DNA of 64,000 nt. It comes from Tubulanus polymorphus (Eukaryota; Animalia; Nemertea). A program made the translations under genes and the position numbers. Under the pieces are notes generated by a model that ran no database searches, was not told the origin of the DNA, and saw nothing but the letters and a program-made list of their open reading frames with translations. Numbering within the stretch: position 1 is the first letter of the stretch; every line of letters starts with the position of its first letter. The DNA is taken from the NCBI RefSeq assembly GCF_964204645.1, contig NC_134031.1, forward strand, positions 8,742,001 to 8,806,000. The letters are read 5' to 3'. Positions 3,601 to 64,000 of this stretch are shown here, piece by piece.

Positions 3601-6600
3601 TGCGTTTGTGGCCAGCACACAGATCACATTGTTCATTGGGGTTTGGTTCAGGACTCGCGAGATTTTCAACAACACGGAAGTAACGTGTAATAAATGATGA
3701 CTTGAATTGCATGACTACCTACCACCCCTCATTATTGTTGGAAAACTAAACGTTCCGCACTGACTAAAAATTAGTAATAACATTTTAGAAATGGCCAGAA
3801 TTTTAACTTAGGTTCTATCTCATTTTTGTTTTACAATTGCGATTGGTATAATTTTTTTCTAAACGGCCGTTAAGGCTTCATGTTTCGTCTGCAATTCACT
3901 GCAAATAGTTACGCAACTACGCACATTTCAGTGTTTTTGGCAGCCGTACACTCAATCGGCACCGTTCGTGACTAGCTTCACTGCGGAATTATCATTAATT
4001 AACATCGCCTTATCACATCATCAACTTATATTGTGCCTTATAACCCTAACAGCCGAAATAATTGAAATGCACACACGATTTCTATCATTGAATATTGAGA
4101 GTGGCCATGTTTGTGTTCTGCTGCTTCGCGTAAATCCCGCGCGGTGGCGCAACCGCGCGGAGTGGGGCCGATACGTCCAGCATATATATGTTGAGATTTT
4201 CTCCTATGAAATGTTCTTCTGGCTCCTTGTCTCCTATGTTGAACCACACATTTTAATTCACTCTACTCGAAATTGCTGCGCTCGAATATTCATACAACTC
4301 TCGAACTTTTTTGACCAAAATTACGTTCAAACCCATCTCAACTTCAATATCTGAACGGCCTCCCGGCAGTAAACACAAGTATCGATGCATATGTTTATTG
4401 CTTTAATTACTAGGCTATCGGTAGTGATACATAGAAACATTGAAACAGTGATACATAGAAAATCCACGCTACACATTGAGACAATACACCGCTCACGGAG
4501 ACATTCAGTACGTACATAATCTCCAGCATGGCGATTCTAAAACCCGAAAAAAAACAGCCCGTTGCCCTAAACATGTCTATTGATTTTCTATAATTGAATG
4601 TTAGCATGCGGTTACACGTTCGTTTTGTCTACTTTTTTCGCGCCGAAAAAGTTTTTATGATCGTTCATTTTTCTCTGCACCAAGTAAAGGTTTTGGAGGT
4701 AAAAGGAGACAAAATAAACCTTACTTTACCGGAATTTATTTTTATTTAGCGTCTTATGTCAAACATATGGTGGCTGATTCGGGCCATGCTAAAAAAATTT
4801 TCTGTACGGCTAAAGGAACGATAAAAAAATTTTCACATTGGCTCGTTTTTTTGTTTTCTCGCGCGAGAATTCAAAACTTTTGGTTTTCTCGCGCGAGAAA
4901 ACTAAACATTTTGGTTTGAAAAATGTTTCTGACTGGCTAGAAGCTGGATAAAAAATTTTTACAATGGCCCATTTTTTGTTTTCTCGCGCGAGAAAACCAA
5001 AATGTTTTGGATTCTCGCGCGAGAAAACCAAAAGTTTTGAATTCTCGCGCTCTAGCCGTACAGAAAATTTTTTTAGTATGGCCCGAATCAGCCACCATAC
5101 AAACAAGCCATGTGGGATCGATACTGAATAGTTTATTGGTTTTTTGGCCAATTTCGTAAAAAAACCCAACTCGAATTCCGCTTAACTCTACATTCCGCTT
5201 TGATTTTTTTTCCTGGTCCCAAATGAATTGAGTTTGTCGCGATTCATAAATGATACACGTACAAAATTTACTCAATCACTGGCGTCAATCACTGATTCGG
5301 GCCATTACATAAAATACCTGGTATGCAAATAAGGGCGCCAGAACGCCAGAACGCCAAAACGAACTTTCAGGGAAAATTGGACGTTTGATTTCGTTTTGGC
5401 ATTCTGGCACGCTGATTTGCATACCAGAAATTTTTCGCTATGGCCCTTATCAGCCACCATACTGGCGAGCAAAAAATCATGCAACGAACGAGTTTTTGGA
5501 TGCCACAAACATGTTCAGAACAACACGAACTTGTTTTCATGAGTACGAAAACTGGTTTGTTCAACAAAATTAAAATCACGACTTAAATTAGATGTGGACC
5601 CTCTGTGGTTTGAATTATCCGCTATTAAGTAGAATGAGTAGAAACAAACAGTTAAATTATTTGGCCGATTCTCAACCAAGCATTTACCGAACAAATGTGC
5701 TGGTTTGAGCAGATCAGTTTATACCAGTCTTAACATATTTCATGAAACCTCAATTGCTCAAATAGTCAGCCAGCCAACCTTAAAAAACTATCCTAAAATT
5801 CGACGATCACGGCATTTTTTGTTACAGCTTGGCATCCGGGCTCATTTGATAGCAGAGTATCTGGGCTATCATGTGTGGTGGATGCCTTTTACAATTTTTT
5901 CGTTTTTTGGCCTACAGGGGGCGTTAAAGTCAGACATTTTGAAATTAAAACATCTTCATTTTCATTTGGCAGGGAAATACACTTTAAACTACTTTTGCTA
6001 AATAATTAGAATATCTCATCTTAGGTTTGGAGTAATTTTACAATCTAAACCTTTTCTGAGTCGGGGGATTACAGCGAATATAGCGCATCGTTAATTTTAT
6101 GGATATATTTATTTGTTACCTAGTTACAGCAGCAACAATCGTGTAATATTCACTTGAAAATAGCAATTTCATATGAAATATTCATTTTAAAGGTTATTAG
6201 CTCAAATATTGATGTTGTTAATGTTTTTTGTTGATTACTTTGATATTTCTTTAAACTTAATTATAACTCGTATGTACTTGGTCAATATCGGGATTAACTG
6301 TTTATTGGTTTCTATGGTAACAGCAATTCAAATCTGCGTTCTTCATCCGTCAGGTACCGGTATTTTGGGCGTTGGGTCTTTCGTGACATTCCATATGTCC
6401 TCAAACATGCCAAAAGTCTTCGACCATTTATTGGGCCGCTTATTACTACGTCTTGCTAACAATTGAATTGCAACAATGGTAACCATTGTTGCAATTGCAG
6501 AAAAATCGCGTAATTTGTCCACATTCTTGACGTAACCAATGGATTATTTGAGTATGTGTTTAATTAAAGCCATTATTTAATCTTTTCTCTTTAAAATTTT

Positions 6601-9600
6601 AAAATCATTCCATATTCGTTCACGAGTAAATTATAACTAAACGTTGTCACCATGGTAACCATATATTATATGCATTTATTTGAAAAAATTCCCATAAGAT
6701 TTTCTCCCATATCTTTTGAAAGCAAATGTGCCCGCTCGGCGCTGTGCGACTAAATTCGCCGCGCATAGACGTATCCCCCGACTGTCTTACAGCCGTCTCG
6801 TGCATCCAGCAAACCCGACAGTTAAAAAATCATTTCTCGCAAACTAAACATACGATCTGTTCCAAACCTTCAATCGAGTATATTCGAGGATCAGAACCTT
6901 ATTTTCGAAACCGTTGAAACGAATAGCGAAAGTGTCGGCGAGATGGTAAGGCCTCGCAAAAAAGTATACGCTTGTTTCTTATCAGCCCTTTTTCGGAAGG
7001 TGTCAAGAGCGGCAGATTTTTATTTTCACCTCCCTTTTTAAAACAAAGAGAAATAAAAAGCCTTATTCCAAACGATACGACAATTTTACGTTACCGAACT
7101 GCTCACCTGCCAGAGTACCGGTAGCGACCGTGAGACAAAAACATAACAAAATGTTATCTGGTTGTTATTCGGGATGCGCGGGGAGTGTTTTGTTTTTTTT
7201 AAAGAAATGATTTCTTGATGCAGGATGCACATTTTAGTAATCTATATTTTGGGCAACGATTCGGCTAAGTAGCCATTATCAGGCGTATTGGGCTAATAAA
7301 AGTTTGTGTGACTAGTTCTCATTTTCAATTGAGCCGAATAGAGGAGAATATCGAAGCTACAGTGTACATTTATCTTGATACGCAATTCAGGAATTTGTGG
7401 CTTTAGGTTACTGTAGTATATACTGAACAGTTCCACGTGCGTGATCGTTATGTAGGGCACAAAAACTAAAAATTAGAGTAGCTATGATTTAAAGCACCTT
7501 CGATACTAGGAACAACACATTGAGGCTTTATAGGAGTTAATAATTGACTGTACCATCTGAACCCCGGAATCAGTTGATTTTACGATCCGAAAGCGAAATT
7601 ATCGAAATGAATGGATTGTTTTCCCACGAATAAATGATGAGAGCGCTATTGTGAATATTCGGTATTCGGTCGGGATCAAGGTGAAAAAAAACAGTTACGA
7701 GAATAGTTCCTGGATTGTTATTGGAGTTAACGTTTCTCGTTGAACCATGAAAATAGTTGCGGGAGAAAATCAGCTTGTGTCCTCAATATATCAGTGCTTC
7801 ACACTATAAAATTTTTCCACAAAAATGTTAAATGTTAGAAATTTCACTGTGCGTGTAGTAGTTTGGTGAAGACAATTACCTGATAATCGAACGATCTACA
7901 AATAAAATCACTTTCTTTCACACACAACTCGGCGCATCTATCTGGTGACACGCGATTGTAATGTTTTTTATTGCTGCCAGAAAGGACAGCAAATGGTGTC
8001 ACGTAGAAGTAAACCAACCATTTTTCTAGAAAATGCAATTAAATCAAATGGATACATTTATCGAATAAGGAAAGATTTTTTGTGATCAATATATTGGAAT
8101 TCTATAGCAGAATCTTTCGTATGACACTGACCTATCATTTCGAGGTGAAATATATCGGCACTTGGCTGTAGTCCATGAACATTAGCGGTCATGTATTCGC
8201 TGGTACCGCACATACCATCGGATGGGCGGAAGTCAAAACTCATGCATCGGAAAGTCGTCTCATTAAGACACTTATCGGCGCACTGTTCGACCGTTAGTCC
8301 TAATTTCTTGAACAGATAAACCGATGATCGGTGGAGTGGTCGCAAAGATCCAAGGCCATAGTTTATGAACTTAGCCAGGGTCCCTTCTAAAAAGAAAATA
8401 TCCCGAAACAAATGTTAGATCTGCAATATAATCGATTTTCGGATAATAGGTACCAGGTAACAAGATGATCTAACTCGGCAAATGTTATTCTATGTATCTT
8501 TGCGTGATTTATTCTGCACGCTGATGCATGTCTGCATTTGGAACACCGGCTTTACTTTTAGTTGAAAACGTGGCCCCCAATTAACCACCCCCCTCCCTCC
8601 TCCGAAAACATATATATCTTGTACTTATGTGAATGATATTACCTCTAAGAAACGATTCAATCAATATGGATTTGCTTACTATACGTAGCTCAGAAGAAAC
8701 TAACTGCTTTCTGGTCCTATCAAATATATCAGTTTTCCATAATGAATATGTATGTAAATTTTTTAGAAATTGCCTCTCGTCTCCGTAGCTATTACTTAAC
8801 TAACGCGTATCTTGTAAGCCTGTATATGCTGGCTTAAAATGTAAAGATGGCACTACTACACGCTCAGATGGAACAGCACATGACTCCGACACGTAGATAT
8901 TTAACGTCATTCACGGGGGCTACACATTTTTGTTTGCTTCCTTTAGTTCTGTTACCTGTGGCTTCCATGGGTACATGATATATTCAATAGGTGAGGCACT
9001 CAGTCTCAATGGACACAGGTTATATTATCTATATTCCCGGGATCCCACATGGTCTCTACGACAGGAGATCAAATGATTCGTACATTCTAAAATTCTCCAC
9101 GGCTGATGGACGAATCGAGGCGTTTGAAGTTCTGGGGCCGTTTTATAGATGGGTATTAACTAACTCAATTTCAAACCCTCAGGTTAAAAATTAAACCAGT
9201 CTATAAAACCTTCCCCTAGACTAAAGCCACCATTGGTTCCCATGGCTTTCGCTCAGTTGGTAAATGTATAGCCAGGGAGGTGGGGAGTGAACCTCCCTGC
9301 TAGCACTCGCACCGGAAGCATAGTCAACGAGTCGTTGAAAATTACAAGGCCGACGTACCACCGGCTTGATCAGGAGTTCGACTCCCGTATGGATAACATA
9401 TTTTTCTTATAGCTACTTGTCAAGTTTCTATGATACATATATCGTACAGGTATGATACATATGGCCTCCACGGGCACAGGCAATAGGCCTATAGTTGTGG
9501 ATGCTCATTGGCGGATGAGCCGTAGTTTGTAAGGGCATGGCTTAGCCAGATTCCTGAGTTCCCACATTTTTCCACGGGTACGCGATTTCACATATTATAT

Positions 9601-12600
9601 ACATGATATACAGTATATCTGTTTATTTTACAGGATCTACTGAAGTCAGGGGCATTGAATCGAAGCTATTACAATCATTACTGCACCTGGAATGCGTTCG
9701 TAATAATCTAACTGTGATGAATAAAGCCTTGCTTGGTTGATATTGTCCACGTGAGATTCTCGTTCAGACAGCCAACACTCCTTCGTGTAGAGCAGGTACC
9801 CGAAAGCGCGACATTTGAACACAGTTTCCAACGCACAATACCTAGCACATCCTTCCAGCGTAAGCACATTATGGTGTTTCGAACGGGAGTGGTATCGTAC
9901 ATTACTGCTTGGCAACTTCCTTTGAAAATTCCGAAGATAATTTGCTGAAATAAGATAAACATTACCTGCACATAGACCTTTTACAATCAAACATGAGGGA
10001 TACCTTTCAAAAGATCACCTCATTATACATGTATAGATCATTCTCTAAAGCCTAGAAATAGAAGTCGAATTTGGGAATATTTCGTATTTTCTACCACCTA
10101 TATTCAACATCTATACAGGGACAAGGTTTTATGTAAAGAACTAGATCTATTCAAAATCAAGGAAATACATTATTTTCTTATCTCGGATTCGAACCTCGAA
10201 ATTACAAAATTGGGATCCATTCAGGCACTGAGCAATTTTCAGTTAATAAACAATATCTATTTGAATTTAGGCCTATATGGTTATGGAAACAAAAAAAATT
10301 CGAATTGAAAGGATGGAAATGAAATATGTTAAATCGTCTGGGATTCGAACTTTAATCTGACTCGTTCATACAGAAAAATAATTTGCGAAATATAGCTACA
10401 AAGCAGCGATAACGGGTTTTTGCCTAGCAGCATCATTATGCAAACCTTTGGAAATTATGATTAGAAATTTAGAAAATTGTGTATTGTAACCTGATATGAC
10501 TGGTACAACTACGTCAATGTATTTTATCACTGTAAAGCCGGGCGCACACCTTAAGACCCTACAAATTACTTTCGATATGATATAGTTCTGATATATTGCC
10601 CATGTCCTATAAATATTGTACCTATGTTACATCATTTCATTCCATGATTCATCTTCATTTCATCTCCTCATACATTTCATGTAGAGAGTTGAACCGTCGG
10701 TCAGTTTACCATAATCAGGTAAGGAAATCCGATCCCGACGGTGAGATTCTTTACTCCCATCCTTAAGATTACCCCTCCCTCGATATTTGCCATTCTTACC
10801 TACACTCGGACCAGTCGGTAATAAACGTTCCATATATTTGAATTCACGATTGGACGTTTCAATATTTTCTCCTAAGGAACTTGGACAGTTATTTCACGGA
10901 CATGAGATCACCTATAGCTGAGTTAATCACCTATATATCAGTTCGAACAAGCACTAATGACGCTATTCAATTAACGCCAATATGAAATTACGCCGCAGAT
11001 TCAAACCAAAAACCACGGTGGTTTCGAATATAATGGAGTGGAAACCAAGTTCTATTTCAATGGAATTCCAACCAAATGATGACAGGCACTGTCGGATGTG
11101 AAAATATTGAAATATTTTCATATCCGAAATAAAATCTGTGTTGTAAATGTAAATGTTATACTTAAACTCATCCAGATAATTACAAGTTCCTAGTTTCTCC
11201 AATGCTAGGAAACATGAAATATCCAGACACTTAATACATCAACAGTGGAACCTCGGAAATATTCAGACACTTAATACATAAACAGTGGAACCTCGTTGCA
11301 ACACCTTCACAGGACCAGAAAATATGTTCGTTATGACCGAAAGCCGGTTTTAACGAGGTTCCACTGTATTATACAAAATTTGATCCTCTAATTACGTTTG
11401 TTTGACGTTTCGGTAGAAAAAAAATTAGAAGTTGCTAAACCCATTACCGCTCTTGTCAAATGTATACAATCAAATAGCCCTGCATTAGTAGTGAGTAACA
11501 TATGACTAGACTTAAGAAATAAACAGATACGTAAACTATTTGGTTGCTTTAGACAGTGATAACCATTTTGACGTACATTACATCGTGGAATTGGCTAATA
11601 CACAATATTTTGAACATAACAGTATTCTCTTTTCCACGAAGTCATGTCACGGTGACACCTATCGGCTCGCTTAATACTTTGATAAGAATGCCCACAAACA
11701 GTGGCCTACTGGTTATAAGAGAAGCTGGTTTGGAAAGAGAAATGGTAAAAGCTGGGACCCCCCAAGTGACGTCACCAAACGCTCCAAAAAAACAAACCAA
11801 ATTAAGGGGTCCAGGAACACCATGCCCACTTGGGAAGTAGTTTAGAATACTCAACAATGTGACGGTTTCAATATTCAAAGCCCCTGGTGACCATATACTG
11901 AAACCAATGACCTTGAACTAACCACAATCATACAACATGTCATGAGCTACAATACACATTACAAAAATATGCCTCGGTGCCAATATAATAAGGAAATACA
12001 TAGTTATTCCGCTATTGAGTACCCCCTGGTGACCATATACAAAAACCAATGACCTTGAAACTCATCACTACACTTATAGAACATGTCATGAGCTACAATT
12101 TTGCAATTGATTGTGGTAACAAAATATGCCTAGGTAGCAACAAAACATGGAAATACTGATTTACTGCGCTATTCAACTTCCCCTGGTCACAATATACAAA
12201 ACCCAATGACATTGAAACTTACCACATTAACAGAACATGTCCTGGGCTAAAACTCTGCAACTGATTGTGGTTACAAAATGTGCATACCATAGGTACCAAT
12301 ATAAACAGACAAATTGTATTTGATTCAATATTAAACTCCCCTGGTGACGAGAAGTAACAAGAGCCCCAAGGGGCACTATGGCCAGCCTGTCGGCTTTTCA
12401 TAAAATGGCAAATGATGATGCATTCTGTGGGTTGAATTTGTCAAAATACACTCCCAGCTCAGAGTCAATACCTAATAATTTACACAATACAATCGTAGAA
12501 TACAAACGTAGCACAGTCAGCGACTGGATCTGGCAGGAACAAATACCTCAGATAAATCTTTTCCCTTGGTCTTGTTGATTTTAATGCGGAATAGAATTGA

Positions 12601-15600
12601 ATTTTCTGAAATTTGCTCAATAATACAAAATTGAATTGGATTTGATGTTTTTATCTGTTCAATAAGGTAAAATTGAATTGGATTTGATATTTTTTTAGAG
12701 AATAAAATTTGATTGAATTTGTAGTTCGAGCACATGGCTAATTAGCATATGAAAAAGCTATTTTTCCCGGACTTTGCACAATGGTCAATGATATTTTCTG
12801 TAGCGCTGATAAAAATATTCCTCCCAAAAACCAAATCACCTAAAGCTTTCACAGAAATCGATCTTGAAATTCAATTTTAGATCTGAAAATAAAACCCGGA
12901 AGTAAAACGGTAAACGATACCGCGGGTTCACGTGAACACCTGCTGATTTCTGCGGCTAAGCCAATCATAGAGGAGTCTTTGCTTTCTGATTGGCTTTTCA
13001 AAACCAATATTTTTGATATTTTTAACATTTTTAAAACCAATATCATATAAATTCTAACGAGGCCCTCTTTCAAAATTCAGCTACGTAGAGTTTGGAGAAT
13101 GGATAATGCTTTAATCAATGATTTGTATGAATATATGGTCAGTTGCACAGTCAAAGAGCCTCAGCTCTGGAAACCATGTCATTTAAATTCGCTCCATTTG
13201 TATAGTAATCGGCTCAGCCTACGGCTGGCCTAAAACTGGGTAACCCCATTCCACATGAAGAGATATATGGCAGTGCTAATAATAATCAAATATTAAAACA
13301 ATAATTTAAAACCTGTTGATATTATCCTCAAAAATCCTTTTCCCAACTAACGAATGAAAACCGATTAAGATGGCCGCCAATTGCGTGATATTCGATTGAT
13401 TGCAAACCCATTTGATATGCCCCAGATCCCTCCCCATAGAATACACATCACAAATTTAAATGAAAAATGACAAACCATTAGCAAGCTACAGGCCTCGGAA
13501 TTTACGTTAGGTCAAAACCTTTTTGGGCACACGGGATCTAATCGATCTAACCTTTCTCATGCTGATGGACCCTTGAGAGATACAAATATATGTGAGAGAT
13601 CAGGAAAATTGATGGAAATGCCCTCAAAATTTCCCTTGAAAACTTCAAAAATGTGCTGATTTCGTCGAACAATGGCTGCCAGTCGACCATCTTGATTCTG
13701 ATCGGGTCAGTTTTTTGGCTGAAGATGCATCTAGGGTAGATACATGTATACACCAAATATCAATTCTATCCATAGAAGCACTCTCAACTTCAAAACTTCC
13801 CAAAATAACTGGACGGACGACGGACGAAAAGGGAACGCGTAATAGCCCACTGAGACCAAAGTCCCAAGTGGGCTAAAAAGGAGAGGACAAAACCAACCAC
13901 ACAATAGCCTCCATAACAAAGGTAAAATACAGACCAGAGGAATACTATAAGAGCAAACGTACCAGCAATAAAGCCATAAACCAGAAACTGATATTTCTTA
14001 ATCTGAGTGGTCACAACTATGCAAGGTGACGCGTCCCACACAAACGGAGCAATCTAAATCATGTTTTGAGCGCAACTTAACTCTCGTGGAAATGCGCTAA
14101 ACGAAAGCGCTGAAACTGATCAGAAAACCGGAATTTATAGATTTTCTCCATGACCGATAAATCTCACAATGTGGGGACTAACGTCATTTAAAGGAGATCA
14201 AAACACAGATGAGATAATAGAGAATCAACAACCGCAGCCAGCCAACTGAGTTTTCTCTGCTTTAAATTCATTCATTCATTTATTCGTTATTACTCTTTTT
14301 GCGTTTCTTCTTTCTTTCCTTACTTGACACTTGAATGGTTTAATTTCTAAATATGTAACAACTGATGCAATAAAGGATTACAAGTCCACCAATTCTAGGG
14401 CTCACGGCCCTCTAGCTCATACACGACAGGCAACAGGATACACATTCCGGAAGAGGCACATAGCCTCTGGTCCACATATAGTGGGCCCCGGGGCACCCAG
14501 CCTTCCAGCCCGCAAAAGGCAGGCAACAATACACGCAAACCTATGAGGCAAACATCCTCCGGTCCACACATATTGGACTCGGGGCAAACAGCCTGAAAAG
14601 CACACAGCCTCTAGACCACACACAATGGGCGACCACTCATAGTGGACTACCCCCATGACCACACACACTGGGTTACTCCGGACAGCAGCCTCAGACAACA
14701 CACATAATATAAAGTCGCACAAAATCATAAATTCTACAAGAAGTAGACAGACGCTGAACAAAGCTAAGCTGTAGACAACCAGAACGTAAAGCATGTCATG
14801 CAGCAAGGAAAACCAATGCCAAACTGATTTCCTCCGTCAGTCCACAGCGCCTCGTAGTGAGAATAGGCTACGGTATATATAATCCAAACTAGTTTCTAGT
14901 CAAGCTCCTTTAGACTAATATATTCTTATAAACTACACTTTATAAGCTGGACACGTAATCAATCCAATTCATAAAGCCATTTAACAGCCTAATACAAGCC
15001 TTTACCAATCTATACATATTACTTTAGAGGGGGCGAACTGAGGGGCCAATCAAAATCTACACATAAAATTTGTGGTCATTGGGGCTAAGTAGAATCCTAG
15101 AATATTTGGCACAAAGTAAGTACAACTGTTTATGATGATTATAACGATTGTTATAATAATAGAAACCCCAAATATGGGGTTCGAAACAATTTCCCATCAC
15201 CACCTTTACGCGAGTGTCTACCCCGGTACATACAATGGATTTGATTGTAAGGGGTTTGGCATCGGATCGGGTTTAATCTATTGGCTTGATTCGAATCCTA
15301 GAATGATGATCTTTCATCGGGTCCAGTTACACCCAAGTGATATCAATGGACCATCGACAAGTTCGATCAATACTTTTAATGATGAAGTGGATCATTCTTA
15401 CAGAGCCTTGACTAGTAAGAAGAGAACAAATTAATGTATTATTACAGGTTTCTGCACAGAGCTACACTGTTGAAGGAACATATAATTTCAATGTAGCCCT
15501 AATGGGATTCGTATCTCGGCATGTAAATTACGAAATGTGGGATTCGAACCGGCGATCAACTATTTAAATCAATAAAATATATTTGAATTAATTGATAAGA

Positions 15601-18600
15601 TATCGACACTTGCAGTTTTTTGTTTCAACGAACTTAGTTGGTTTGAGAAGAAGCTTTTCTATGAAGATTGAACACCCCTGACGGACATATGAATGAATCA
15701 ATTACCTTCAACCTCAAAATGATAACGCTTCGCTTGAAATTTAAACATTGCATTTCTTTACCTCTGGCGAACGTAATGAGATCAATATAACAAATTTGTT
15801 GAAGCTATTTCTATCAGCCTTCGGCGAAGAATCTTAATAGACCTATTATCTTTTTCCCAGGGCCTAGTCTGTCAAAGCATTCGAGTTAGAGCAATAAATA
15901 CTTACTTTCATAATGGTCAACATTGAGTGCTGGGGTGAGCAAATTACTTGAGTTGTAAACATCAGATGAATGCAATGTGCACTCAAATTCTTTCGAATTG
16001 AAATCTACTGAATGGCAATAGAAGGAAACTTCGGCTTCACATTCCGCTATACAACTGGGCAGCGATAAGATGTCCTTTAGTACCCTGTTGACATATGTTA
16101 CCCGCGTAGTTCTGAGTTTCTTCAATGGGATAACCAACCATCGTAGTCCTATCCCTATAATATCAAATATAATGACTAGGGGTTCAGGGAAAGCATATCC
16201 ACTTGGTGAAATGCTCGACAATCTGACACCTTTAGTATCCAATGGCCCTCTAGTTTTAACCAATGCGGTAATCGATGGGGTTGAAACTCACCACAATCAT
16301 TGAATATGTCGTGAATATTTTGCAATTGATTGAGACATGGACGTATAAACTAAATTATACGTCCATGATTGAGGTTACAAAATGTTAACAGGCACCAACG
16401 TATGGAAATATATAAGCCTGCCACAATATTCTACTATTCAATGGTGAACATAGAAACCACCTTGAAACTCACCACAATCATAGATCATGTTATGGGCTAC
16501 TAATTTGCAATTGATTATGGTTTATAAAACATGCCCAGATATAAAATATGGAAATACCATCTTCCTCTCCCCAAAAGAAATTTGAATTTTTCAGCTATCT
16601 CGGATGACGCCACCTCCAAACACCATGTTGACAGGTGACATGCATGAAGTCATTTCCAGCGCACTCTTGGTGACCCAGTTCCAAAGGGCACTAGGATTGC
16701 TGTTTTCATATAGGTCATAAGGGTTGATTTCAAGAAGGGTTGGCAATATCCCCTTCATCGTTCCACTGTCTATTCTGATATCTGTGGTCCCTATAACCTA
16801 CGGTTTCACGTATGTATTTATGTAACAAAGCATCTGACATCAGAACATTGCAGAAAAAAATCAATGCAGGAGATTTGGGGTATCACATACCGGCCAATTT
16901 AATTCAATTGATACCTTGAAAAAAAACTAAATCAATAGCTGGAGTAAATATAGTCTAACAATATACCTTGACAAATTCTGCATTCGCATCCAACGCACCC
17001 CCTGGGCACGGGCCTGAAATTAGGTCAGCATAAAGAGACACCCACGGCCTGGCTGACAACAGACTATCTGTTACGTTTCCTCTTGAACATCCCGAAATGG
17101 AATACAGAGTAATTGACAGCTGAAGTCCAAAGCAGTTTCTGTCTTCGTTTTTCGAAAAGTGCACCTCAAGACTTGACACAGGGGTCCCAACCTACCGAAC
17201 ACTCCCTAGATCCGCCCTTTAAAGTGAATGCAAGATACCCCGAGTCCCAAGTGTCAGAATTCAGACCCTTTTGGCACAAAAAGTGGCCTCCTTGTGTTGA
17301 TGATGTGCCTTGGAATACATTCACAAGCAAAACGTCAGGACAATTGAGCAAAGTATCTTTAATGTCCCTTTAAAGCCTAAAATGAATGTTTGAAAGTGCT
17401 GATTGTGGCGATAATAGCAACAACCGCCAATCGGCCATCTTGATTCCGAGCGGGCCATCTTTCGGCTGTATTTAAGTCTAGGATATCATTGATTCAAAAA
17501 TAAACCAAATATCAAGACAATCCGATGGACGACAATGAACGCAATAACCCTGTCCTTAACACCAAGTGGACCGATAAGTATGATATCAGTATTAACTATG
17601 TCGAAAATAACTCGTACCAAAATAACCTTTTCATGTCTCAAGCAATTGGCAACTTACTGCTAGCGTGTTTCGTATCTTTAGTTGCATTGACGAGTTCATC
17701 GGTCGGGGCATTTGCGTTGATGTTGTGAAGAGTGCACTTTTCCACCGAATGGTCATAATCGAAAGAGCGACAATTATAACCAGTTTCCATAATACATCGT
17801 TTAGCACAGTTCACCAAACTCAAATTGGGTAAAATCACTGGTGATCGGGATTCCAATTCCATATTTGCTACTTTCCGAAATATATTTCGGAAAATGTCTC
17901 CAAAATCATTAATGGCGTATCCTATAAAAAAGCAACAAAATACAACTTGCTCTATTGATCATCGTCATATTTTCAAACTTATTGTTATGTGTTTAGCTAT
18001 GTTTCTTTTGAAGATAAGTTTCATTTCTATACATCGAGCTAATTTTGATATCATCTAACAAAAAATAGATCAATCGAGCGCTGCGGAAAAGCCAAATGAC
18101 ATTGGAATGCTAATGTTTCGATTTGTTTTTGTATTTCTGATGATAAAAATACGTAGGCCTTACGTATACACATTAGACATTTTAGGTGATTCTGTTGGCA
18201 TCCTGTTTTGATAAATCAAATATAACCACAGGTAACCCATATTTTCACCATATAGCCATTAGCTAGACTAAAACCTTCTATCATACCAGAGGAAAAACAC
18301 CTAAAAACTTATCACCAAAAATGAAAGCCACCCGCACATTATCAGCTGTATTGTAAACTACAGCAATGTTAAAGAATGGAATTTGATGTTTGTACAATAT
18401 AGACATATATGATTTGTTTTTACTGCTGCATCATTACCATATGATCTTTGATTTGTTTCAAGTACCTTGATACTTTCCTAGAACGCTTTTTACGTTACAA
18501 AAAGCTACACATAATGCACACTTATAGGTAATTACTTTGCTAAAAACACTTCAACAATTATGTGTCGGTATTCGAGTGGCCGTAGGATATTTGGGGAAGC

Positions 18601-52610: not shown

Positions 52611-52611
52611 A

Positions 52612-54766: not shown

Positions 54767-55167
54767 GAAGACGACTTAGGATACTACCTTGCGTGACTCC
54801 ACTAGTTAGACCGTCTCATTCCAAGATGAGGCGTTCCGTTGATTTCGGTTACAAGTTTCCGTTCAGAGATAACTGCTGTGCCATTTGGGCGACCTATCAT
54901 TGATACTGTTTCCTAATAGCCTGTTCAGTAATGGCTGATGTTGAGCCTTATCAAATGCTTTGTTGAAATCCACCGTTGAACAGGATTCTAAGACTGTGCA
55001 GAAAACCCGTTATCGCTGCTTTGCAGCTATATTTATTATTATTATTTTCTTCCACACTATTTTTACCAAAAGAACATAGGCTTTGTTACCTTACCGCTGT
55101 TTCATATACAATCCATATAATATCGTTCAGCTCACTGAGATCTACAAATAGCCCGCGTGTTTTTTCA
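54767..55167. repeat. Mosaic of a CR1-like RT fragment (54767-55030) and a copy of 49770-49895 (55031-55167)
   Basis: GAAGACGACTTAGGATACTACCTTG matches 39217 onward; TTTTCTTCCACACTATTTTTACC...GCCCGCGTGTTTTTTC matches 49773 onward. Confidence 0.75.
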
Positions 55168-56551
55168 ATTTGGTTGCATTGGATTTTTAGATTCTTATAG
55201 ATTTCTAGCAAGTTCATTAGATAATTTATCAAAAAGTTTAGTTGATAATGATTTTATAATAACTCGATATTATCCAAATGACCAAGATTTTAAATTATTG
55301 AGATATAAAGGTGCAATTCCTTATTCATTTTATAAAACGCACAATGATTTTAATGTAACAGAATAATTAAAAGATCAATTTTATGATCAATTAAAAGAGG
55401 AGTATGTGAAAGACGAAGTGTTTAATAGATCATTAAATATTTGGAACCATTTTAAGATAAAAATTCATGGTGAATTAGTTGATTTATATTTAAAATCAGA
55501 TGTTATGATATTGGCTGACATATTTGAAAAATTTAGAGAAGTTAATTTGAATCATTTTAATGTTGATCCTTGTTATTGCTACTCTAGTCCTGGTTTAACC
55601 TGGCAATGTGGTTTAAAATATACAAATGTAGAATTAGATTTATTAAAAGAACCAGATATGGTTTTATTATTTGAAAAATCAATTAGAGGTGGAATTAGTG
55701 GTGTTATGGGAGATAGATATTTTAAAGCAAATGATGAATATAAATTATTATATATTGACGCCAATAATTTATATGGTTGGGCAATGATGCAACCTCAACC
55801 ATATAAAAATTTTATATTAACAGAAGTTGAAAATGATGATAAAACTAATTGGGAAAGCGCAATTATGAGTTTAGAAGATGAAGCACCAATTGGTTATTTC
55901 TTTGTAGTTGATTTAGAATATCCTGAAAATATAAAGTTTAAAACAAGAAACTTACCTTATTGCCCAGAACATTTAACTGTAGATGATAGTTATTTAAGTG
56001 AATACCAGAAGAAAATAAAACCGAAAGATCATGTTTTTACAGAAAAATTAATACTTACTCAAAATAATAAATACAATTATATTGTTCATTATAGAATGTT
56101 AAAATTTTATCTAAAACAAGGAATGAAATTAAAGAAAGTACATATATATATTGAATTTAATCAATCGAAGTGGTTAGAAAAATATATAGATTTTAATACT
56201 CAACAGAGAACCATATCAAAAACAGATTTTGAAAAAGATTTCTTCAAATTAATGAATAATAGTTTTTATGGTAAAACATGTGAAAATATTATAAATAGAA
56301 ATGATATTGAATTAGTAAATAATTCTGAAAGATTAAGACATTTACAATCAAGTCCTAGACATTTAGGAAATAAAAGATTTGAAGATTATCTAACAGCAGT
56401 TAAATTAAAAAGAACTTCAATGAAATTTAATAAACCAATATTTATAGGTTCAACTGTTTTAGAAATATCAAAATTATTAATGTATGATTTTTATTATAAT
56501 GTTTTACAACCACTTTTTGGGGAAAAGCATATTGAAATATTATATTTTGAT
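55168..56551 (+). pseudogene. Protein-primed family B DNA polymerase (N-extein; N- and C-termini missing)
   Basis: One frame through a TAA at 55364: FLDSYRFLASSLDNL, KGAIPY, ExoIII LYLKSDVMILADIFEKFR, SIRGG, motif A YIDANNLYGWAM, motif B KLMNNSFYGK, KPIFIG, then motif C broken at ILYFD. Confidence 0.93.
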
Positions 56552-57195
56552 TCTGTAACAGCTGACACCCCAATATTATTAAAATGTAATAATAAAATAT
56601 TGGTAAGAAGAATTTCAGAAATAATTCCAAAACAAAATGAATGTTATATTTTATATGGTGAAAAAGAATTAATACAAATAAATGGATTAATGGATGTTTG
56701 GACAAGAAATGGATGGAAAAAATTAAAGAATATTATTAGGCATAAAACAAATAAGAAAATCTATAGAGTTAGAACTAAATTAGGATTTGTAGATGTTACA
56801 GAAGATCATAGTTTAATTAAACGAAATGGTGATGAAATAAAACCAACTGATATAAAAATTGGAGATTAATTATTACATAAAAGATTTTTCCAAAGGATGA
56901 ATCATATGTCATTTGATGAAATTATTGATAGTATTTATAACATAGAACCCGAAACATTAGAAGAAAAAGAATATTTTATCAAAGGATTTTTCATGGGTGA
57001 TGGTTCAGCAGGTGTGTATAATTATGTTTGGGGTAATAAATATTGTTGGTATTTATGCAAGACTTAAAATTATTAGACAGAATTAAGAAATTCTGTGAAG
57101 AAGTTTATCCAAATAAAACATGGATGTTATGAAATCATCAGCAGTTTATAGAATACTTGTAAATAATCCTAAAGATTTTGCTATAAAATATATAT
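56552..57195 (+). mobile_element. Intein (Hint N-terminal domain plus LAGLIDADG homing endonuclease), degraded and C-terminally deleted
   Basis: Starts SVTADTPILLK immediately after YFD. Block B: VDVTEDHSL (TxxH at 56798-56809). Then IKIGD*LLH, and in-frame FIKGFFMGDGSAG (KGFFMGDGS at 56981-57007). After frameshifts: QDLKLLDRIKKFCEEVYP and DVMKSSAVYRIL. Confidence 0.88.
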
Positions 57196-58035
57196 ATTCT
57201 GGTGTATGATCTTCTATAGAAAATGTTTTAAAAATTTCATCTAGATAATTTAATTTTGGATCTATGAGAAAATTTCTAGTTTTATCTTCACTCCATAAAT
57301 TCTTTTGCCATCCACATTCATTACAAAATAACACAGTACCTTCTTGTCTTAAGGTTGCATAACTACATTATGGACATTTTCGTTTATAATTTATTGGTAA
57401 TAGATCTTCATTAAGCTCTTGGTATTTTCTTACGTTTTCTTTATGTTTTATTGTTCTATTATGTAGATTTGAATTACTTGTTGTAATAATCAATTTACAA
57501 TATTTACAATAATATGTTTTTCTTGTTAATTCATTATATTGTTTTTCTAACTTTTCAACTGTTTCTTTATTATCTGGTAACGTTTTCTCATATTTTATTT
57601 TTCTAATAAATTATTTTTTCTTTCATTGAATTCAGTTTCAAATTTATTAGAAATTTTATCTATATGTGCTTTACGAAATTGATGATTCTCCCAATCTTCT
57701 ATATTTTCAGGGCTATATTTTATTCGACAAGGCTCACAGAAATGATATTTTATATTATCCTTGTCATAGAATAAGAAAGGTCTTTTCCAAATAACTTCAG
57801 GTTCAACTTCAACAGAATTACTATTACTTTCGTTACTATCAACATTAACTGTTGCGCCATTAATTTTACACTTCTCTGAATGTTTTTTAACATAATTTCT
57901 TGAGAATAATTTATTACATTTTGGACAGTTTATTTTAGGGGGTTTATAATTTTCATCATGTTTTTTCATATGTCGAGCCATATTACTTTTTCTTAGAAGT
58001 TCACCACAAATTTCACATCGTATCTTCTCATCCAT
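57195..58035 (-). pseudogene. Viral multi-zinc-finger protein (four C2H2-like fingers plus a C4 ribbon)
   Basis: CEIC..H..H, CPKC..H..C and CEPC..H..H. After a frameshift near 57597: CKYC..H..H, then CP*C-x11-CNECG (stop at 57368-57370), continuing into ORF 57146-57334. Confidence 0.7.
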
Positions 58036-58104
58036 TTATTAAGGAAAAATTTTATTAAAATTAATTTTTAGTGATGAGCGGTAATTTTTTTTATGTTATA
58101 AATA

Positions 58105-58863
58105 ATGGTAGAATTAAAAGAATACAGAATATTTGTTGATTCTAGAAAACTTACAAATTATAAATCACATAATTTACTAGTACAATTAGATAGAGAATTT
58201 AAGAATTGTGTTGATTTAAAATTAGTTAATATAAGTTTATGTAACTCATTTTACAATATATCGGATAAAAGTCTAGAACATTTGATTTTTTCAATCTTTT
58301 ACAAAAAAATGAATGAATGGTATTTTATATATTTAAAACCAGGATTATATAATTTAGATACATTAGCACAAGAAATTAATTGAAAAGCTCGAGCTAAATT
58401 AGGAAGTGATTCCGGATTTAGTATTAGAATTTTAAAAAGTGATAGTTCTAATAAAATAAAGATTAGGTTAGATAATAACGAACAATTTAAATTTACAGTA
58501 AGAAAACCTTTAGCTAAACTGTTAGGAATTAACCCAAATATTGTTACAGCACACGCAGAAGGTAAATCAAACTTAATACCTTTTACACATTTTTATATTT
58601 ATTGCAATTTGATTGACCCAACAAAAACATTTGAAGCAACTAAAGATACAATTTGTAATTCTGGTTTATTAAATATTTTACCATTAAAAAATGTTAAACA
58701 ATTTGGAACTCAAATAAATTATAATTTAACTGAATGTGATTTCAAACCTTGTATTCCACGTTTCAATAATTTTAAATTAGAAATAAGAAATTACAATGGA
58801 TATTTAATTGATTTGAATAACTTTCCTGTAATTTTTGAATTAGTTATAAGATGTAGAGAGTAA
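58105..58863 (+). pseudogene. Minor capsid (penton, single jelly-roll) protein with one internal stop
   Basis: ORFs 58105 and 58609 are one frame across a TGA at 58381. Polinton penton-like motifs: NSFYNIS, PGLYN, LAKLLG, YIYCNLI, IRNYNGYLIDLNNFPVIFEL. Confidence 0.75.
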
Positions 58864-58878
58864 TTTTTCATTATATAA

Positions 58879-59235
58879 ATGAATATAACTGTTGGGCCGA
58901 GCATATGTTTTGGATTTGATTTTAAACGTGAGAAAGAAATGAAATTTAACATTAATGATGTAATTACACATATCAAAAATATTACATTTTCTAATGAAAC
59001 AACATTTGAGTATGAAACAACAATAGATAAAGAAACTTTTAATGTAGAAAAGATTACTAATTTAATTAGAGAATCTTTAATATTTTATGAATTAGATGAA
59101 GATTTTATCATCGATGATATTAAAAAAATAATAATTGAAATATATACAAATGAAACTAGTAATGAAATAAATGTTGAAATAATCATCACTAAGATAACTA
59201 AATATTTTGAAGATAGTAATTTTTTTGATAAATAA
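58879..59235 (+). CDS. Viral hypothetical protein, acidic, 118 aa
   Basis: Intact ORF preceded by the shared TAAATG motif. Confidence 0.65.
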   Translation: MNITVGPSICFGFDFKREKEMKFNINDVITHIKNITFSNETTFEYETTIDKETFNVEKITNLIRESLIFYELDEDFIIDDIKKIIIEIYTNETSNEINVEIIITKITKYFEDSNFFDK

Positions 59236-59457
59236 ATGAGTGATAATAAGTGGATAATAACTGGATTATATAATGGAGCATTACTATCAGTTGGAACTGT
59301 TGGTTATTCAATGGTATTAAAAAAAGTATTCAAAATGGGAAGTGTTAATGTTGATAGATTTGATATAAATGATATTTTAAAGTTAACATTAGCAGTTACT
59401 TTATCTAATTTAACTATTGATTATTTGGAAAAACAAAAATATATTCCTCCCATATAA
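59236..59457 (+). CDS. Small hydrophobic viral protein, 73 aa
   Basis: Intact ORF abutting the previous stop (TAA ATG); two moderately hydrophobic stretches. Confidence 0.7.
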   Translation: MSDNKWIITGLYNGALLSVGTVGYSMVLKKVFKMGSVNVDRFDINDILKLTLAVTLSNLTIDYLEKQKYIPPI

Positions 59458-59481
59458 ATGCATAATTTTTTTGCTAAATAA

Positions 59482-59904
59482 ATGGCTTCTGCAATTATAA
59501 CTATTATAGGATCGGCAATTGTTAACGCTTTTGCATTTGCTGGTGGTGGTTATTTATTTAAACATATTGATAAAAATGGATCATTAACAGAACAAAAAAG
59601 ACATAACTTAGCATTAGAGAAATATGATAAAGCTGCAGAAGAATATAGAGAAAAGAGACAAAACTATATGGATTACATCAATAAAGAATTAATTGATCAT
59701 AATATTTCACATAGAGATTTTCTATCAGTTGATGATGCAATGAGTTTATTTAACGCGGTAACCAATAAAGAAAAATTACATCTATACAAACCTAAATTAT
59801 CAGATTATTATACCCCAAGTAAAGAACAACAGAAATATGAAATAATATGGATTTTAGGCGGAACTGTTATTGTTATATTTGTCGCTTATAAATTTACTAA
59901 TTAG
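59482..59904 (+). CDS. Viral protein with hydrophobic N-terminus, helical middle and C-terminal TM, 140 aa
   Basis: MASAIITIIGSAIVNAFAFAGGGYLF..EQKRHNLALEKY..IIWILGGTVIVIFVAY; motif upstream. Confidence 0.75.
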   Translation: MASAIITIIGSAIVNAFAFAGGGYLFKHIDKNGSLTEQKRHNLALEKYDKAAEEYREKRQNYMDYINKELIDHNISHRDFLSVDDAMSLFNAVTNKEKLHLYKPKLSDYYTPSKEQQKYEIIWILGGTVIVIFVAYKFTN

Positions 59905-59923
59905 TAATTTTTTTTCTAAATAA

Positions 59924-60358
59924 ATGGATGATAAAGTTGATAATATTGATATTATTCCTCATGATATAAATAAAACTAAATTAAAAATATATTTAGAAAA
60001 ACAAATATTAGAATTTGAAAGTGACTTAAAGATAAAAAAGAAAAAATATCTAAAAAGTAAAATTATATTTTATTTGATTATAAGTGGTTCGGTTACAATT
60101 AGTTCTGTAATAACATTTCTAGCAATATTCAGTCCTTTAACACCTTTAGCTATATCAATTGGTGTATTAGGATTAAGTTCAAGTGTTTTAACCGGTATAA
60201 GTTCAAAATTAAATATAAAAAGTAATAAAGAAAAAATTAAAACTAATATAAAAGAAATTTATAAATTGAAGAATACACTAGATTATATAATAAGTTTAAA
60301 TGGTCATATAACAGTTGAAGAACAAGATAAATTATTAAAAGAATTAATAGATTATTAA
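59924..60358 (+). CDS. Viral two-TM protein flanked by coiled-coil-like segments, 144 aa
   Basis: IIFYLIISGSVTISSVITFLAIF and LAISIGVLGLSSSVLTGIS; motif upstream. Confidence 0.7.
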   Translation: MDDKVDNIDIIPHDINKTKLKIYLEKQILEFESDLKIKKKKYLKSKIIFYLIISGSVTISSVITFLAIFSPLTPLAISIGVLGLSSSVLTGISSKLNIKSNKEKIKTNIKEIYKLKNTLDYIISLNGHITVEEQDKLLKELIDY

Positions 60359-60374
60359 TTTTTTTATGATATAA

Positions 60375-61763
60375 ATGGTAGATAGTTTTCCAAAAGCTTT
60401 CCGATATAATAAATCAATTAAATATAATATTCCTGCAATAGATTTTAATAAAGATATTACATATAGAAATGAAGTTTTAGATTCATTAACTAATTTAGAA
60501 ATTTATGTTACTGAAACTAATAATTTTAATGCAAAGATGGAAAATATATTTCATGTATATTTAATTGATTTTAAAAAATTGAAAGATGAAAAACAATGGT
60601 TATTAAAATCTAATATGAAGTATTGGCAGAACCAATTAAATTTAGCTGTTTATTGTGCAACAACAGGTTGTGGAATTAGTTGGAATGATCATTTGAATAA
60701 TTCTAAATATAATTTAATTCAAAGTTTATTTAGATTTCATACATACTTTCAAATAAGATTAATATTAAATGAATTAGAGTGTCCTTAACCAGGGTCTAGG
60801 TATTTTAAAGAATTAGATAATAATATTAATTTGTCAAAGTTTTATAAAATTTGTAATGAATTTAATATAGATATAAATAATTCTGATTTTAGAACGAAAA
60901 TTGGAACAATAAGATCACTTCCTTGCCCTAAAAAGATTGCAGAATATTGTGCACTTCCCATACCATCTAATAGTTTTTATAATATCTATAATAATAAATT
61001 AGGTTATGGTAAAATAGAAACTAAGGATTTAGAAACATTAAATTTCAATAAATTACCGACATTTAATGATAATTTAAAACAAGAAAACAATAATGGTTGG
61101 GTTTATTTCATTTTAGAAAATAGTGAAGGTTTTACTAAATCAGGTATAGAAAGAATAAATCAATCTATTAGAACTTATTTGATATGTATTTTAGGTGCGC
61201 AAGTTGAAACAAGATCCCCAATAATTGGAAATTTAAATACATCATTTGATACACAGAAACCTTTCAAAGTATTATTTGAAGATTCAATTCATAATGATAA
61301 AAATAGATCGATTCCGGAAAACATTGTAAGATATCAAAATTATTTAGATAAATCTCATGTAAGACTAAATTATTGCATAGGCCCTAATCTATTAATTATT
61401 TCTAATGATTTAGTATTAAAGATGGGAAACATAATTGGTTACAATAATCTAATTAAAACTGCAACAATAAATAATTCATTTGGATTGAATGATATAAATA
61501 AAAAGATAATTACTGCTCCAAAATTAATGGAAGGTGAAAAAAATAAAAAACATATTCAATCAACTGAAACTAAAACTAATAATATTAAATTAAATAATGA
61601 TTCTAAAATAAAAGATTACAATACATCAGAAAATATTAAAACCGATAAAATTCAACATGAAATAATTAAACTAAATGATGATAATAAATCCCATGAAAAT
61701 ACTAAATTAGCTTTAACTTGTATAGGAATTGTTATAAGAGGATTATTATATTTTAAATTTTAA
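60375..61763 (+). pseudogene. Viral protein of about 460 aa with C-terminal TM and one internal stop
   Basis: ORFs 60375 and 60831 are one frame across a TAA at 60786 (ECP*PG). Contains WQNQLNLAVYCATTGCGIS and ends LALTCIGIVIRGLLYF. Confidence 0.75.
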
Positions 61764-61779
61764 TTTTTTTATTATATAA

Positions 61780-63204
61780 ATGGATGTAGAAGGTGGAGAA
61801 GATATTGGAATGGATCCTTTTGATGAACCTGGTATAAGTGATGAACAACCACCTGATTTTGATGAAACAAGTTTTAATGACGGTAATGAGCCAGGATATA
61901 ATAATAATTTAAATATGCCTGATTATATTAAAAATGCAGAATCACAATTAAATCCTGAAAATTTAAACAGTTTAGTAAAACAAGATTTAGATAATTTAAA
62001 CAAAATACCCAAATTAGAACGTATAATTGAAAATTCTAAACTTAACATAAATGATGAAGACGTTGGTCTTTAAGCATATCAATTAAAATTTTTAGATAAT
62101 GGTAAATGTTATTATCGTTTGAAAGGTGATTATTATATTGATATCACTTCTAAAAATAATAAAAAAATTATAGCGGAATCAACTTTGAAAAGTTTAAAAC
62201 CAGATAAAATTAAAATAATAAGTAATAGTAATGAAATAACTGATGTTACACAAAAAGAAATAGATGATAATATAGACGTATTTAAACAAAGAATTAATGA
62301 ATTATTTGAAACAATCAAAAAGAAATCAGAAACAGAAACAACTTCTGAACAGAATATAACTTCCAAAAATAGTAAACTTAAATCAAATAAAGTTCCAATT
62401 GAAAAACTTTTACCGAATGGATTAATTGATGCAACAGATCAACAATTAGAAGATTTAAATATATTTTCTGATGAAGCAATTAGAGAAATTATTAGTATAA
62501 GAAATGCATCCGATAAAATTGCGCATGAAAAAGAAATAAGAGATTTTAAAATTAGATTTTTAGAAAAAGAATTAACTGATAAAAATAAAGAAATAGAACA
62601 ACTAAAGTCTGATTTAGATCATCAAGTAATTGATGAAATAGAGTATAGGCAAAAAGAATAACGATTAGAAAAAGAAATTAATAATTTAAAAGATAATTTA
62701 GAAGTACAGAAAGAAGAAATTAAATTATTATTAAAATCATATGATTATGATATTAATAGATTAAAAGTTATTTTTAAAGATTTATTGATAAAACCAAATT
62801 CTGAAATATCATTGAAAGATAGAATAAAATTATTATTTAAGTTAGAAGGAATAACAATTTTTTCAATTCTAACAGCTGTAACTATGATATTTACAACAAT
62901 TGGTTTAGCAATATCAAATGCTTTGAAATCTACTCCTACTCCCAATAAACCAGATAAACCCCCAGATAATAATTCTGTACAAGATAAAGTTAAAGATGGT
63001 TTAAAGAAATTAGCAAAATATTTATGGGAACTATCTAAAAAATCTGCTGCAGCTTTACCAGGAATTATTGCATCAATTGTTGGTTTTATATTGAAATCTG
63101 CAGGTAATATTCTTAACTTTGCTGCTGAACATATTATTTTATTTTTAATTACAGTTGTAAGTGCTATTATTTTTGGGCTAGTGAATATGATTAAAAATAA
63201 ATAA
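61780..63204 (+). pseudogene. Viral protein of about 470 aa (acidic N-terminus, coiled coil, hydrophobic C-terminal helices) with two internal stops
   Basis: ORFs 61780, 62119 and 62785 are one frame across TAA at 62071 and 62659. C-terminus: GITIFSILTAVTMIFTTIGLAI..LPGIIASIVGFIL..IILFLITVVSAIIFGLV. Confidence 0.75.
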
Positions 63205-63224
63205 TCAATTTTTTTGTTAAATAA

Positions 63225-64000
63225 ATGAGTGGGAGTTAGATAAGTCCTTCTAAGATTTCTAGAATATCTAATGCTATTAAAGCAGAAAGATCACATCATA
63301 TAATTACACATAATCCTTCAAATATTAATCCCGATGAAACTTTATATGTTAGAATTCCTAGATTAACACAAAATACTTTTTATGTTCCAAATAGTATTTA
63401 TTTATCAGCTGATATAAAAGTAACTGGCCATGATAATAATTATGTTGTTGATAATGTTGGAAGGTATTTGATTAAAAAATTAACTATAAAGATTGGTCCA
63501 GAAACAGTTTTCTCATTAGATGATTATAATTTATTTATGCATTATAAAGATTTATGGTTAACTAAAGAAAATAGAAATAATATGATATTTCAAGGCATCC
63601 AATCAGGAAACCATAATAAATTAAGATCAGGAGCTAATGACGCAATAGTAACTCGTGCCACAGATAATTTGATTAAAAAGATTTATGGAAGCAAATATAA
63701 AATCCCATTAGACTTTGAATTGATAAATAACAATGCACCTTTATATAAATACGCAATTCAAGAAGATATTATATTTGAGATAACATTTGCTCCTGTTAAT
63801 GAAATTGTATTATCTAGCGTTGTTAAAGATATGGGTTATAAATTATCGAATATATGTTTAGAATATAACACAGTAACTAATGAAAATATTGCAAGTATAA
63901 TTCAAACTCAATACAATCAAGGATTTTCATTATTATATGATTATATTGATAAATTTAAAACTGTAACTATTAATGCAAATGATGAAATAATAAATGAGAA
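63225..64000 (+). pseudogene. Major capsid protein (double jelly-roll type) with a stop at codon 5; continues past the window; absent from the ORF track
   Basis: ATG at 63225 and TAG at 63237, then open to the window end: IITHNPSNINPDETLYVRIP..VVDNVGRYLIKKLTIKIG..YKDLW..FQGI..YKIPLDFEL..YKLSNICLEY. This resembles, from memory, MCPs of invertebrate Polinton-like elements. Confidence 0.75.

Follow-up and report, generated by a model that had tools for sequence, protein, structure and literature searches.

The locus and its host context

The window, by which we mean the whole 64,000-nucleotide stretch of DNA that was analysed, joins host chromosomal sequence to part of an AT-rich element (22–24% G+C, compared with about 38% on the host side). 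At 1649..17958, on the minus strand, lie the exons of an intron-split gene that encode one CUB domain (Pfam E 1e-29) and four PAN domains, the latter matched by PAN_1 in four separate frames. These domains account for 5 of the 70 host-side frames scanned, and none of the 70 contains a giant-virus gene. Proteins that combine CUB and PAN domains are typical of animals. A decayed non-LTR retrotransposon with RVT_1 and zf-RVT matches occupies 28414-31576 on the minus strand, and a tandem array of roughly 31-base units extends from 50100 to 52700. Because CUB and PAN exons, a retrotransposon and tandem arrays occur together on the host side, the host is very likely an animal. Among the known copies of the gene described below, the one in the window is alone in having an animal-like host shown by its context.

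The element is cut at its left end near 55163-55167, and its right end lies outside the window. On the plus strand, 55157..56551 encodes a 5′-truncated Polinton-type protein-primed PolB (pPolB) whose last residues, YFD, form the first half of motif C. Similarity to an intact relative, P0002, begins at 55157 (tblastn, from P0002 residue 718), and a stop codon is present at 55364-55366. The 5′ end of the polymerase is cut by a very high-copy repeat at 54800-55167, where the read depth is about 4,600 and 1,856 reads run elsewhere behind 55167. No Pfam family matches the window's own extein; the fragment is called a pPolB because its relatives P0002 and P0125, to which its extein is 57% and 47% identical, pass the PF03175 cut-off. 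The extein is 84% identical to the intein-free protein P0245. Another pPolB of the window's family, P0253 (61% identical to the window), carries the name Sulfurimonas sp. in UniRef and probably represents DNA of a eukaryotic element that was binned with bacterial sequence. The family also has an Endonuclease_7 insertion, at another place in the polymerase.

The rest of the element, at 57193..64000, contains a zinc-finger gene (57598-58035, minus strand), small tandem open reading frames on the plus strand, and a possible capsid gene at 63240-63998. The Capsid_N match of the last (E 0.0034) is below the cut-off, and the frame has no PDB match, no relative in viral contigs and a model pLDDT of 31. 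The window stops short of the element's right end, and no rve integrase, A32 ATPase or protease was found within the window. Beside pPolBs of 39–40% identity, such genes are found in other contigs: rve and Pox_A32 in L059, Peptidase_C5 in L060 and a capsid gene in L058. The viral contig L058:3-12044 pairs a pPolB of the window's family with a Sputnik-type major capsid protein.

An intein interrupts motif C of the polymerase

Motif C of the polymerase (YFD|TDS) is interrupted at 56552 by a Ser-initiated LAGLIDADG intein on the plus strand. A single frame reads KHIEILYFD|SVTADTPILLK, with Ser1 encoded at 56552, and 56552..57192 contains the decayed N-terminal portion of the intein, equivalent to some 60% of an intact allele of 337–354 residues. 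Block A with Ser1 (SVTADTPI, 56552..56575) was placed by frame reading and motif alignment. Block B (VTEDHSL, 56795..56815) provides the conserved Thr and His; its TEDHS core is invariant in 19 of 19 aligned inteins. The first LAGLIDADG helix, block C, reads EYFIKGFFMGDGS (56969..57007) and includes GFFMGDGS at 56984-57007. Endonuclease block D (DVMKSSAVY, 57123..57149) follows in a shifted frame, recovered as a tblastn piece, 57123-57155, aligned to P0002 residues 1380-1390. The motifs SVTADTPILLK, VTEDHSL and GFFMGDGS, which had been picked out in a first-pass annotation of this DNA, are thus encoded where they were reported. With Ser1, the block B Thr and His and the first helix all present in the window, the insert is, by its motifs, a class 1 intein with a LAGLIDADG endonuclease.

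Profile and homology searches agree with that annotation that the YxD|TDS site of this Polinton-type pPolB is occupied by an intein. The N-terminal splicing region matches TIGR01445 with 33.8 bits (E 5e-8; cut-off 24.5), while the Pfam Intein_splicing match is weaker, at 19.5 bits, and falls under its cut-off of 35.8. The best PDB sequence match of the insert is the intein endonuclease PI-PkoII (E 1.4e-5). Intact relatives provide further support: the upstream frame is 59% identical to the pPolB-intein protein P0002 over 642 columns that take extein and intein into one alignment, and the intein itself is 63% identical to that of P0002 in one comparison and 64% identical, over 169 columns, in another. 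A search pattern for the junction matches once in the window and in none of 100 shuffles. It has no match in viral contigs and one in metagenome contigs, L061, a broken pPolB-intein gene.

Sequences from other runs establish that the junction is real. Contigs of two of these runs bridge 56551/56552, one from X4 (56363-56590) and two from X2 (56489-56754 and 56408-56598). Runs X6 and X7 contributed no matching sequence. A third run, X5, consists of raw reads from another sample under the same species label (1,934 million letters in total, with 2,333 reads on 56380-57330). In X5, 134 reads follow the extein as far as 56551 precisely and diverge from it beyond that base, and depth falls from 537–552 (56476-56539) to 218–264 (56572-57019), about half, past the junction. 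Intein-free alleles were sought and found: the four closest intein-free proteins, P0245-P0248 (71–84% identity), read YFDTDS, such alleles rejoin exactly at D|T, and the group of P0125 has both forms. Since the reads leave at 56551 and the intein-free relatives read YFDTDS, the intein is inserted in motif C after its first Asp and directly before the Thr.

The X5 depth over the intein resembles that over the downstream genes (218–301). Uncalibrated as it is, the depth, taken with the number of letters read, suggests tens to hundreds of copies. Five variant sites at 56488-56533 occur in 53–56% of X5 reads, which is the share of depth lost at the junction. From the equality of these two shares it seems that this species has its intein-free copies in a diverged sister family, and the window's own family looks near fixed for the intein.

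Decay of the window copy

The intein in the window is dead and can neither splice nor cut. An in-frame stop codon at 56867-56869 (plus strand) is missing from 235 of 242 X5 reads and is therefore private to this copy or to a few copies. Two frame breaks in the endonuclease region, near 57057 and at 57115-57120 (57056..57122, plus strand), appear as tblastn frame changes relative to P0002; across this region other copies vary in length, as judged from reads and contigs of other runs. A deletion break at 57192..57193 marks the point beyond which the second LAGLIDADG helix, the intein C-terminus and the C-extein are missing. A tblastn search of the whole window with P0002 recovered no blocks F and G, final Asn or TDS C-extein, and the resemblance to intact alleles stops short of 57192. 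Past 57192, 124 X5 reads run into different sequence, and 150 join at this point, coming from different sequence, so a deletion in the window copy evidently took the C-terminal half of the intein together with the C-extein.

Among the X5 copies, 9 of 13 variable intein sites are third codon positions (p 0.009, for the best-supported rows, which were those listed), and this excess implies that the intein frame was under selection while the family diversified. Of the changes private to the window copy, 2 of 5 are at third positions. Base composition does not date the intein: its GC3 (0.13) equals that of its extein (0.13), but the inteins of giant viruses are just as AT-rich (GC3 0.08–0.13).

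Intact relatives

Five public protein clusters, P0002, P0005, P0125, P0136 and P0137, are full-length pPolBs with a complete intein. They make up 2 of the best 120 matches in one intein search and 5 of the best 120 in another, the other matches being mostly RNA-primed PolBs. Two further pPolB inteins, in P0259 (the same gene as L061) and P0317, are partial. P0211 and P0215, though tagged PF03175, were counted as RNA-primed PolBs on their sequence and other domains. All five intact clusters have Ser1, VTEDH, two LAGLIDADG helices with their Asp, YD in block F, a final Asn and Thr+1, and PF14528 or PF05204 is over its cut-off in P0002, P0125 and P0136. A model of the P0002 intein, built on a 19-row alignment, has a pLDDT of 88, and its best fold matches are endonuclease-bearing inteins (Foldseek, best E 2e-16).

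The first-pass annotation had predicted that complete copies would resume with TDS after an HN dipeptide. The return to TDS is borne out, since all five clusters end N|TDS; HN is not general. The penultimate residue is His in three of the five and Ser and Lys in the other two, and Lys also occupies this position in Mimivirus.

The intein is uncommon in the pPolB family. It is present in 4 of the 120 best extein matches and in none of 150 family representatives at 50% identity. This background was drawn from a profile search that included the P0259 extein, so that polymerases were ranked, and further pPolB inteins beyond the yield of this search may have been missed.

Age and spread among polymerases

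Within the window's pPolB family, inteins and exteins have diverged to a like extent (intein/extein identities of 47/46, 44/44 and 44/40%), and the two trees have the same branching order. Because the intein tree mirrors the polymerase tree and the divergences match, capture of the intein was likely a single, old event. In the extein tree, which has 94 rows and uses 55 of 148 new representatives, all 7 intein rows fall in one 38-row clade, apart from 56 intein-free rows. They are scattered among intein-free rows of that clade, so that 7 rows need 7 changes. Such patchy presence could reflect repeated gain, or equally an intein-bearing ancestor whose descendants lost the intein precisely and repeatedly; the number of changes does not separate the two.

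It is conceivable that a single entry was followed by inheritance and loss alone, homing among Polinton copies having stopped. The agreement of the trees and divergences would follow from such a history, as would the finding that none of the 150 representatives outside or beside the clade carries an intein. We nevertheless consider it rather improbable, for three reasons. The first comes from the P0125 group, whose copies are 94–99% identical. Among the 15 of its 136 members that were listed, 7 intein-bearing sequences could be compared with 8 intein-free ones (6 members and 2 close relatives). All 10 fixed differences lie between 7 residues before and 44 residues after the site, in about 1190 extein residues. 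A difference tract confined to the insertion site is the footprint that homing predicts if flanking donor sequence is copied along with the intein. Secondly, both endonuclease helices keep their Asp in all five intact clusters, and precise loss alone would not preserve an endonuclease. Thirdly, a related intein occurs in a pPolB family that cannot be aligned with the window's: the P0005 intein is 42–54% identical to other pPolB inteins, while its polymerase does not align with theirs. A further jump is needed to account for it, although the nested position of the P0005 intein is not forced (p-AU 0.325). The intein has thus likely spread between elements by cut-and-copy homing.

Motif C itself has drifted in the pPolB lineage that includes P0125 and P0317 (P0260-P0362 and P0234-P0241; 97 rows, among them near-copies). 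The tally is 40 DCDS, 25 DTDS, 13 DTDA, 8 DTDG, 5 other, 1 interrupted by the intein and 5 unscored. DTDS is kept in 138 of 141 scored family representatives and in none of the 8 intein-free copies nearest P0125. A bolder inference is that the drift in this lineage might represent escape from endonuclease cutting. Against this, 13 of the 14 closest relatives of the window keep DTDS, and the drifted rows are not independent.

Origin of the pPolB inteins

From 247 extracted inteins, those of 315–440 residues were thinned at 80% identity to 124 rows, and a more careful tree was built from 52 of these rows around the pPolB group. The set was gathered by similarity to pPolB inteins, which biases its sampling, and the tree is rooted with distant inteins. 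In the 52-row tree all 7 pPolB inteins form one clade (100/100), as they do in the 124-row tree. The clade has a long stem (0.47) and is nested within branches of RNA-primed PolB inteins supported at 97/93, 99/89 and 100/98; the deep branches of the tree are short. The exteins of RNA-primed and protein-primed PolBs give no blastp match to each other, which implies that the intein moved between the two kinds of polymerase, and transfer between an RNA-primed and a protein-primed PolB is the best reading of the tree. A transfer between the PolB of a large DNA virus and a distantly related pPolB, as the first-pass annotation had suggested, is therefore upheld.

The annotation had further expected the intein to nest with the alleles at the YGD|TDS site of nucleocytoplasmic large DNA viruses, for which we take pol-c to be the label. 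It does fall among the PolB inteins of large DNA viruses, but the Mimivirus group is rejected as its sister (p-AU 0.004). Two ASFV-like PolB inteins are placed as sister to the pPolB clade with support of only 86/94; their polymerases are those closest to PDB 8YWG, an entry reportedly linked to African swine fever virus. On the other hand, a one-residue deletion and a GFPLI end are common to the pPolB alleles and a group of marine giant viruses, and this group is not rejected as sister by the AU test (p-AU 0.495). The donor may have been ASFV-like or a member of the GFPLI group. Capture of the intein once, long ago, from a large DNA virus seems likely.

The same annotation had taken the intein as a sign that a giant virus shared this host. 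A recent transfer from such a co-resident virus would agree with the fact that, pPolB inteins aside, its closest relatives belong to large DNA viruses. Indeed, 17 of 20 contigs with the GFPLI end bear names of giant-virus metagenome-assembled genomes, 19 of the 20 have a long PolB with YGD|S...KN|TDS, and the 4 scanned all match PF00136. The window intein, however, is at best 49% identical to RNA-primed PolB inteins, compared with 63% to the P0002 intein. The single pPolB clade with its long stem, the co-divergence of inteins with exteins, and the lack of giant-virus genes among the scanned host-side frames also make a recent transfer very unlikely. One old capture followed by co-divergence fits these data, so there is no ground for placing a giant virus in this host, and that part of the earlier proposal must be given up.

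In T4-like PolBs (P0036, P0037 and P0052), YGD|TDS is occupied by inteins of the same family, whose branches fall among those of the giant-virus alleles, and P0036 is closest to 903-residue phage polymerase entries in the PDB. The direction of transfer might then have been the reverse, Polinton or phage inteins having seeded the alleles of giant viruses, a proposal to which the GxPLI end of these phage inteins (checked in P0036) and the short deep branches lend some credence. It is nonetheless extremely improbable: the pPolB inteins are a small clade under three well-supported branches of RNA-primed PolB inteins, the phage inteins are nested in the giant-virus GFPLI group (100/97), and the best matches in prokaryote genomes are at most 38% identical over their full length. 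Phage records gave two matches, both weak and partial. The same intein family also occurs at D|TDG in type II topoisomerases (P0003, P0025, P0027, P0034, P0066, P0081, P0092, P0096 and P0110), which is another jump to a look-alike motif.

Finally, the lack of a C-terminal splicing region in the window copy might raise the thought of an assembly chimera or of a non-splicing fusion of Hint and endonuclease domains, but the same layout is intact in five independent clusters, intein-free alleles rejoin precisely, and the bridging contigs of independent assemblies (X4, X2) refute a chimera, so this idea has virtually no chance of being correct.

A model for splicing and homing

We conclude, with a probability of roughly 80%, that the window contains the decayed front part of a LAGLIDADG intein in motif C of the pPolB of an animal Polinton-type element, and that intact alleles of this intein are predicted to splice and likely to home. 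The route of splicing and the steps of homing that follow are those of established intein chemistry. Splicing of an intact precursor would begin with an acyl shift at Ser1, aided by the block B His; transfer to Thr+1 and cyclisation of the last Asn would then rebuild DTDS. Since the insert separates the catalytic aspartates of DTDS, the polymerase would need splicing.

The intein may have entered pPolBs through one old ectopic homing event, from the RNA-primed PolB of a large DNA virus, made possible by the YxDTDS coding sequence that the two polymerases share. Thereafter the endonuclease would cut the DNA of intein-free motif C, and repair from an intein-bearing copy would spread the intein; a multi-copy Polinton family would be a supply of empty targets within one nucleus. 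The intein may thus have persisted with the pPolB lineage for a long time as a presence/absence polymorphism, maintained by homing among numerous copies that were dispersed, or replicated together, within the nucleus of one host. The second, unalignable family represented by P0005 would have received or donated the intein in at least one additional move.

A stronger version of this model is that a homing-intein lineage, old and still alive, inhabits animal genomes after its capture from a large DNA virus; that it runs through the full homing cycle in multi-copy Polintons, where it converts copies lacking the intein; that it has passed between two pPolB families unrelated to each other; and that its endonuclease drives escape variants of DTDS. 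It is possible that all of this holds, but we propose it tentatively, at somewhat less than even odds.

Comparison with known inteins and polymerase insertions

The inteins of Polinton-type protein-primed polymerases, as a clade derived from a large-DNA-virus allele, are apparently undescribed. We found no description of an intein in a Polinton pPolB in the open literature, the scope of which leaves aside subscription papers, supplements and intein databases. The accessible text of PMC12220804, PMC13768754 and PMC8502044 describes no pPolB intein, and PMC2777158, likewise available in part, was used for the motif alone. In the portion available of PMC5784728, inteins are stated to be absent from metazoan genomes, and Iridoviridae are given as intein-bearing viruses. 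The present locus puts an intein family on an animal chromosome, although the gene that carries it belongs to an endogenous virus-like element and not to the host. The locus is a fossil trace of past DNA exchange between large DNA viruses and Polintons. Where near-identical copies of a family include both alleles, the homing cycle could be tested within a single genome, and intact alleles could be a source of Ser/Thr inteins and LAGLIDADG enzymes, which are presumably functional in the cells of animals.

Insertions of other kinds are known in Polinton polymerases. HNH and VSR nuclease insertions in pPolBs are reported in the accessible text of PMC10748475, where the words intein, LAGLIDADG and homing do not occur. 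One sentence in the available part of PMC11071308 suggests that such insertions stem from intein invasions, with no splicing domain shown. As far as these texts describe them, the HNH and VSR insertions are nuclease domains with no splicing domain, whereas the pPolB inteins combine Hint and LAGLIDADG domains and lie in the catalytic motif. They give direct support to the passing suggestion, as worded in that part of PMC11071308, that inteins invade Polinton pPolBs.

Chromosomal inteins in viral-like DNA polymerases have been described on nuclear scaffolds of Klebsormidium, Tetrabaena and Hondaea (PMC10710043, main text). Like the intein in the window, these lie in eukaryotic chromosomes inside polymerase genes of endogenous viruses. 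Their hosts are algae and a protist, and that main text contains no occurrence of Polintons, animals or metazoa. In fold, the P0002 model resembles inteins of known structure that join Hint and LAGLIDADG domains, namely TliVMA, PhoVMA, PI-PkoII, PI-PfuI and PI-SceI (Foldseek E 2e-16 to 2e-9, best TM 0.66), but these are at most 19% identical to it and reside in different host proteins.

The closest parallel is with the YGD-TDS site, known from the RNA-primed PolBs of mimiviruses and phycodnaviruses (Mimiviridae and Phycodnaviridae; PMC6316209, in the part available). The pPolB inteins share with these alleles their position in motif C, Ser1, TEDH, two LAGLIDADG helices, the final Asn and Thr+1. 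They are also of similar length, 337–354 residues as against 351 in the Mimivirus allele (P0194), to which the P0002 intein is 44% identical. In contrast to the viral alleles, they reside in polymerases of the PF03175 type and not in RNA-primed PolBs (PF00136), they have YFD, YMD, YLD and SSD, in addition to YGD, as flanks, and they form a clade of their own; the window intein, moreover, sits in a multi-copy element of an animal chromosome. The giant-virus intein site is thereby extended to protein-primed polymerases, and homing can evidently pass from one polymerase to another when the two have little more than one motif in common.
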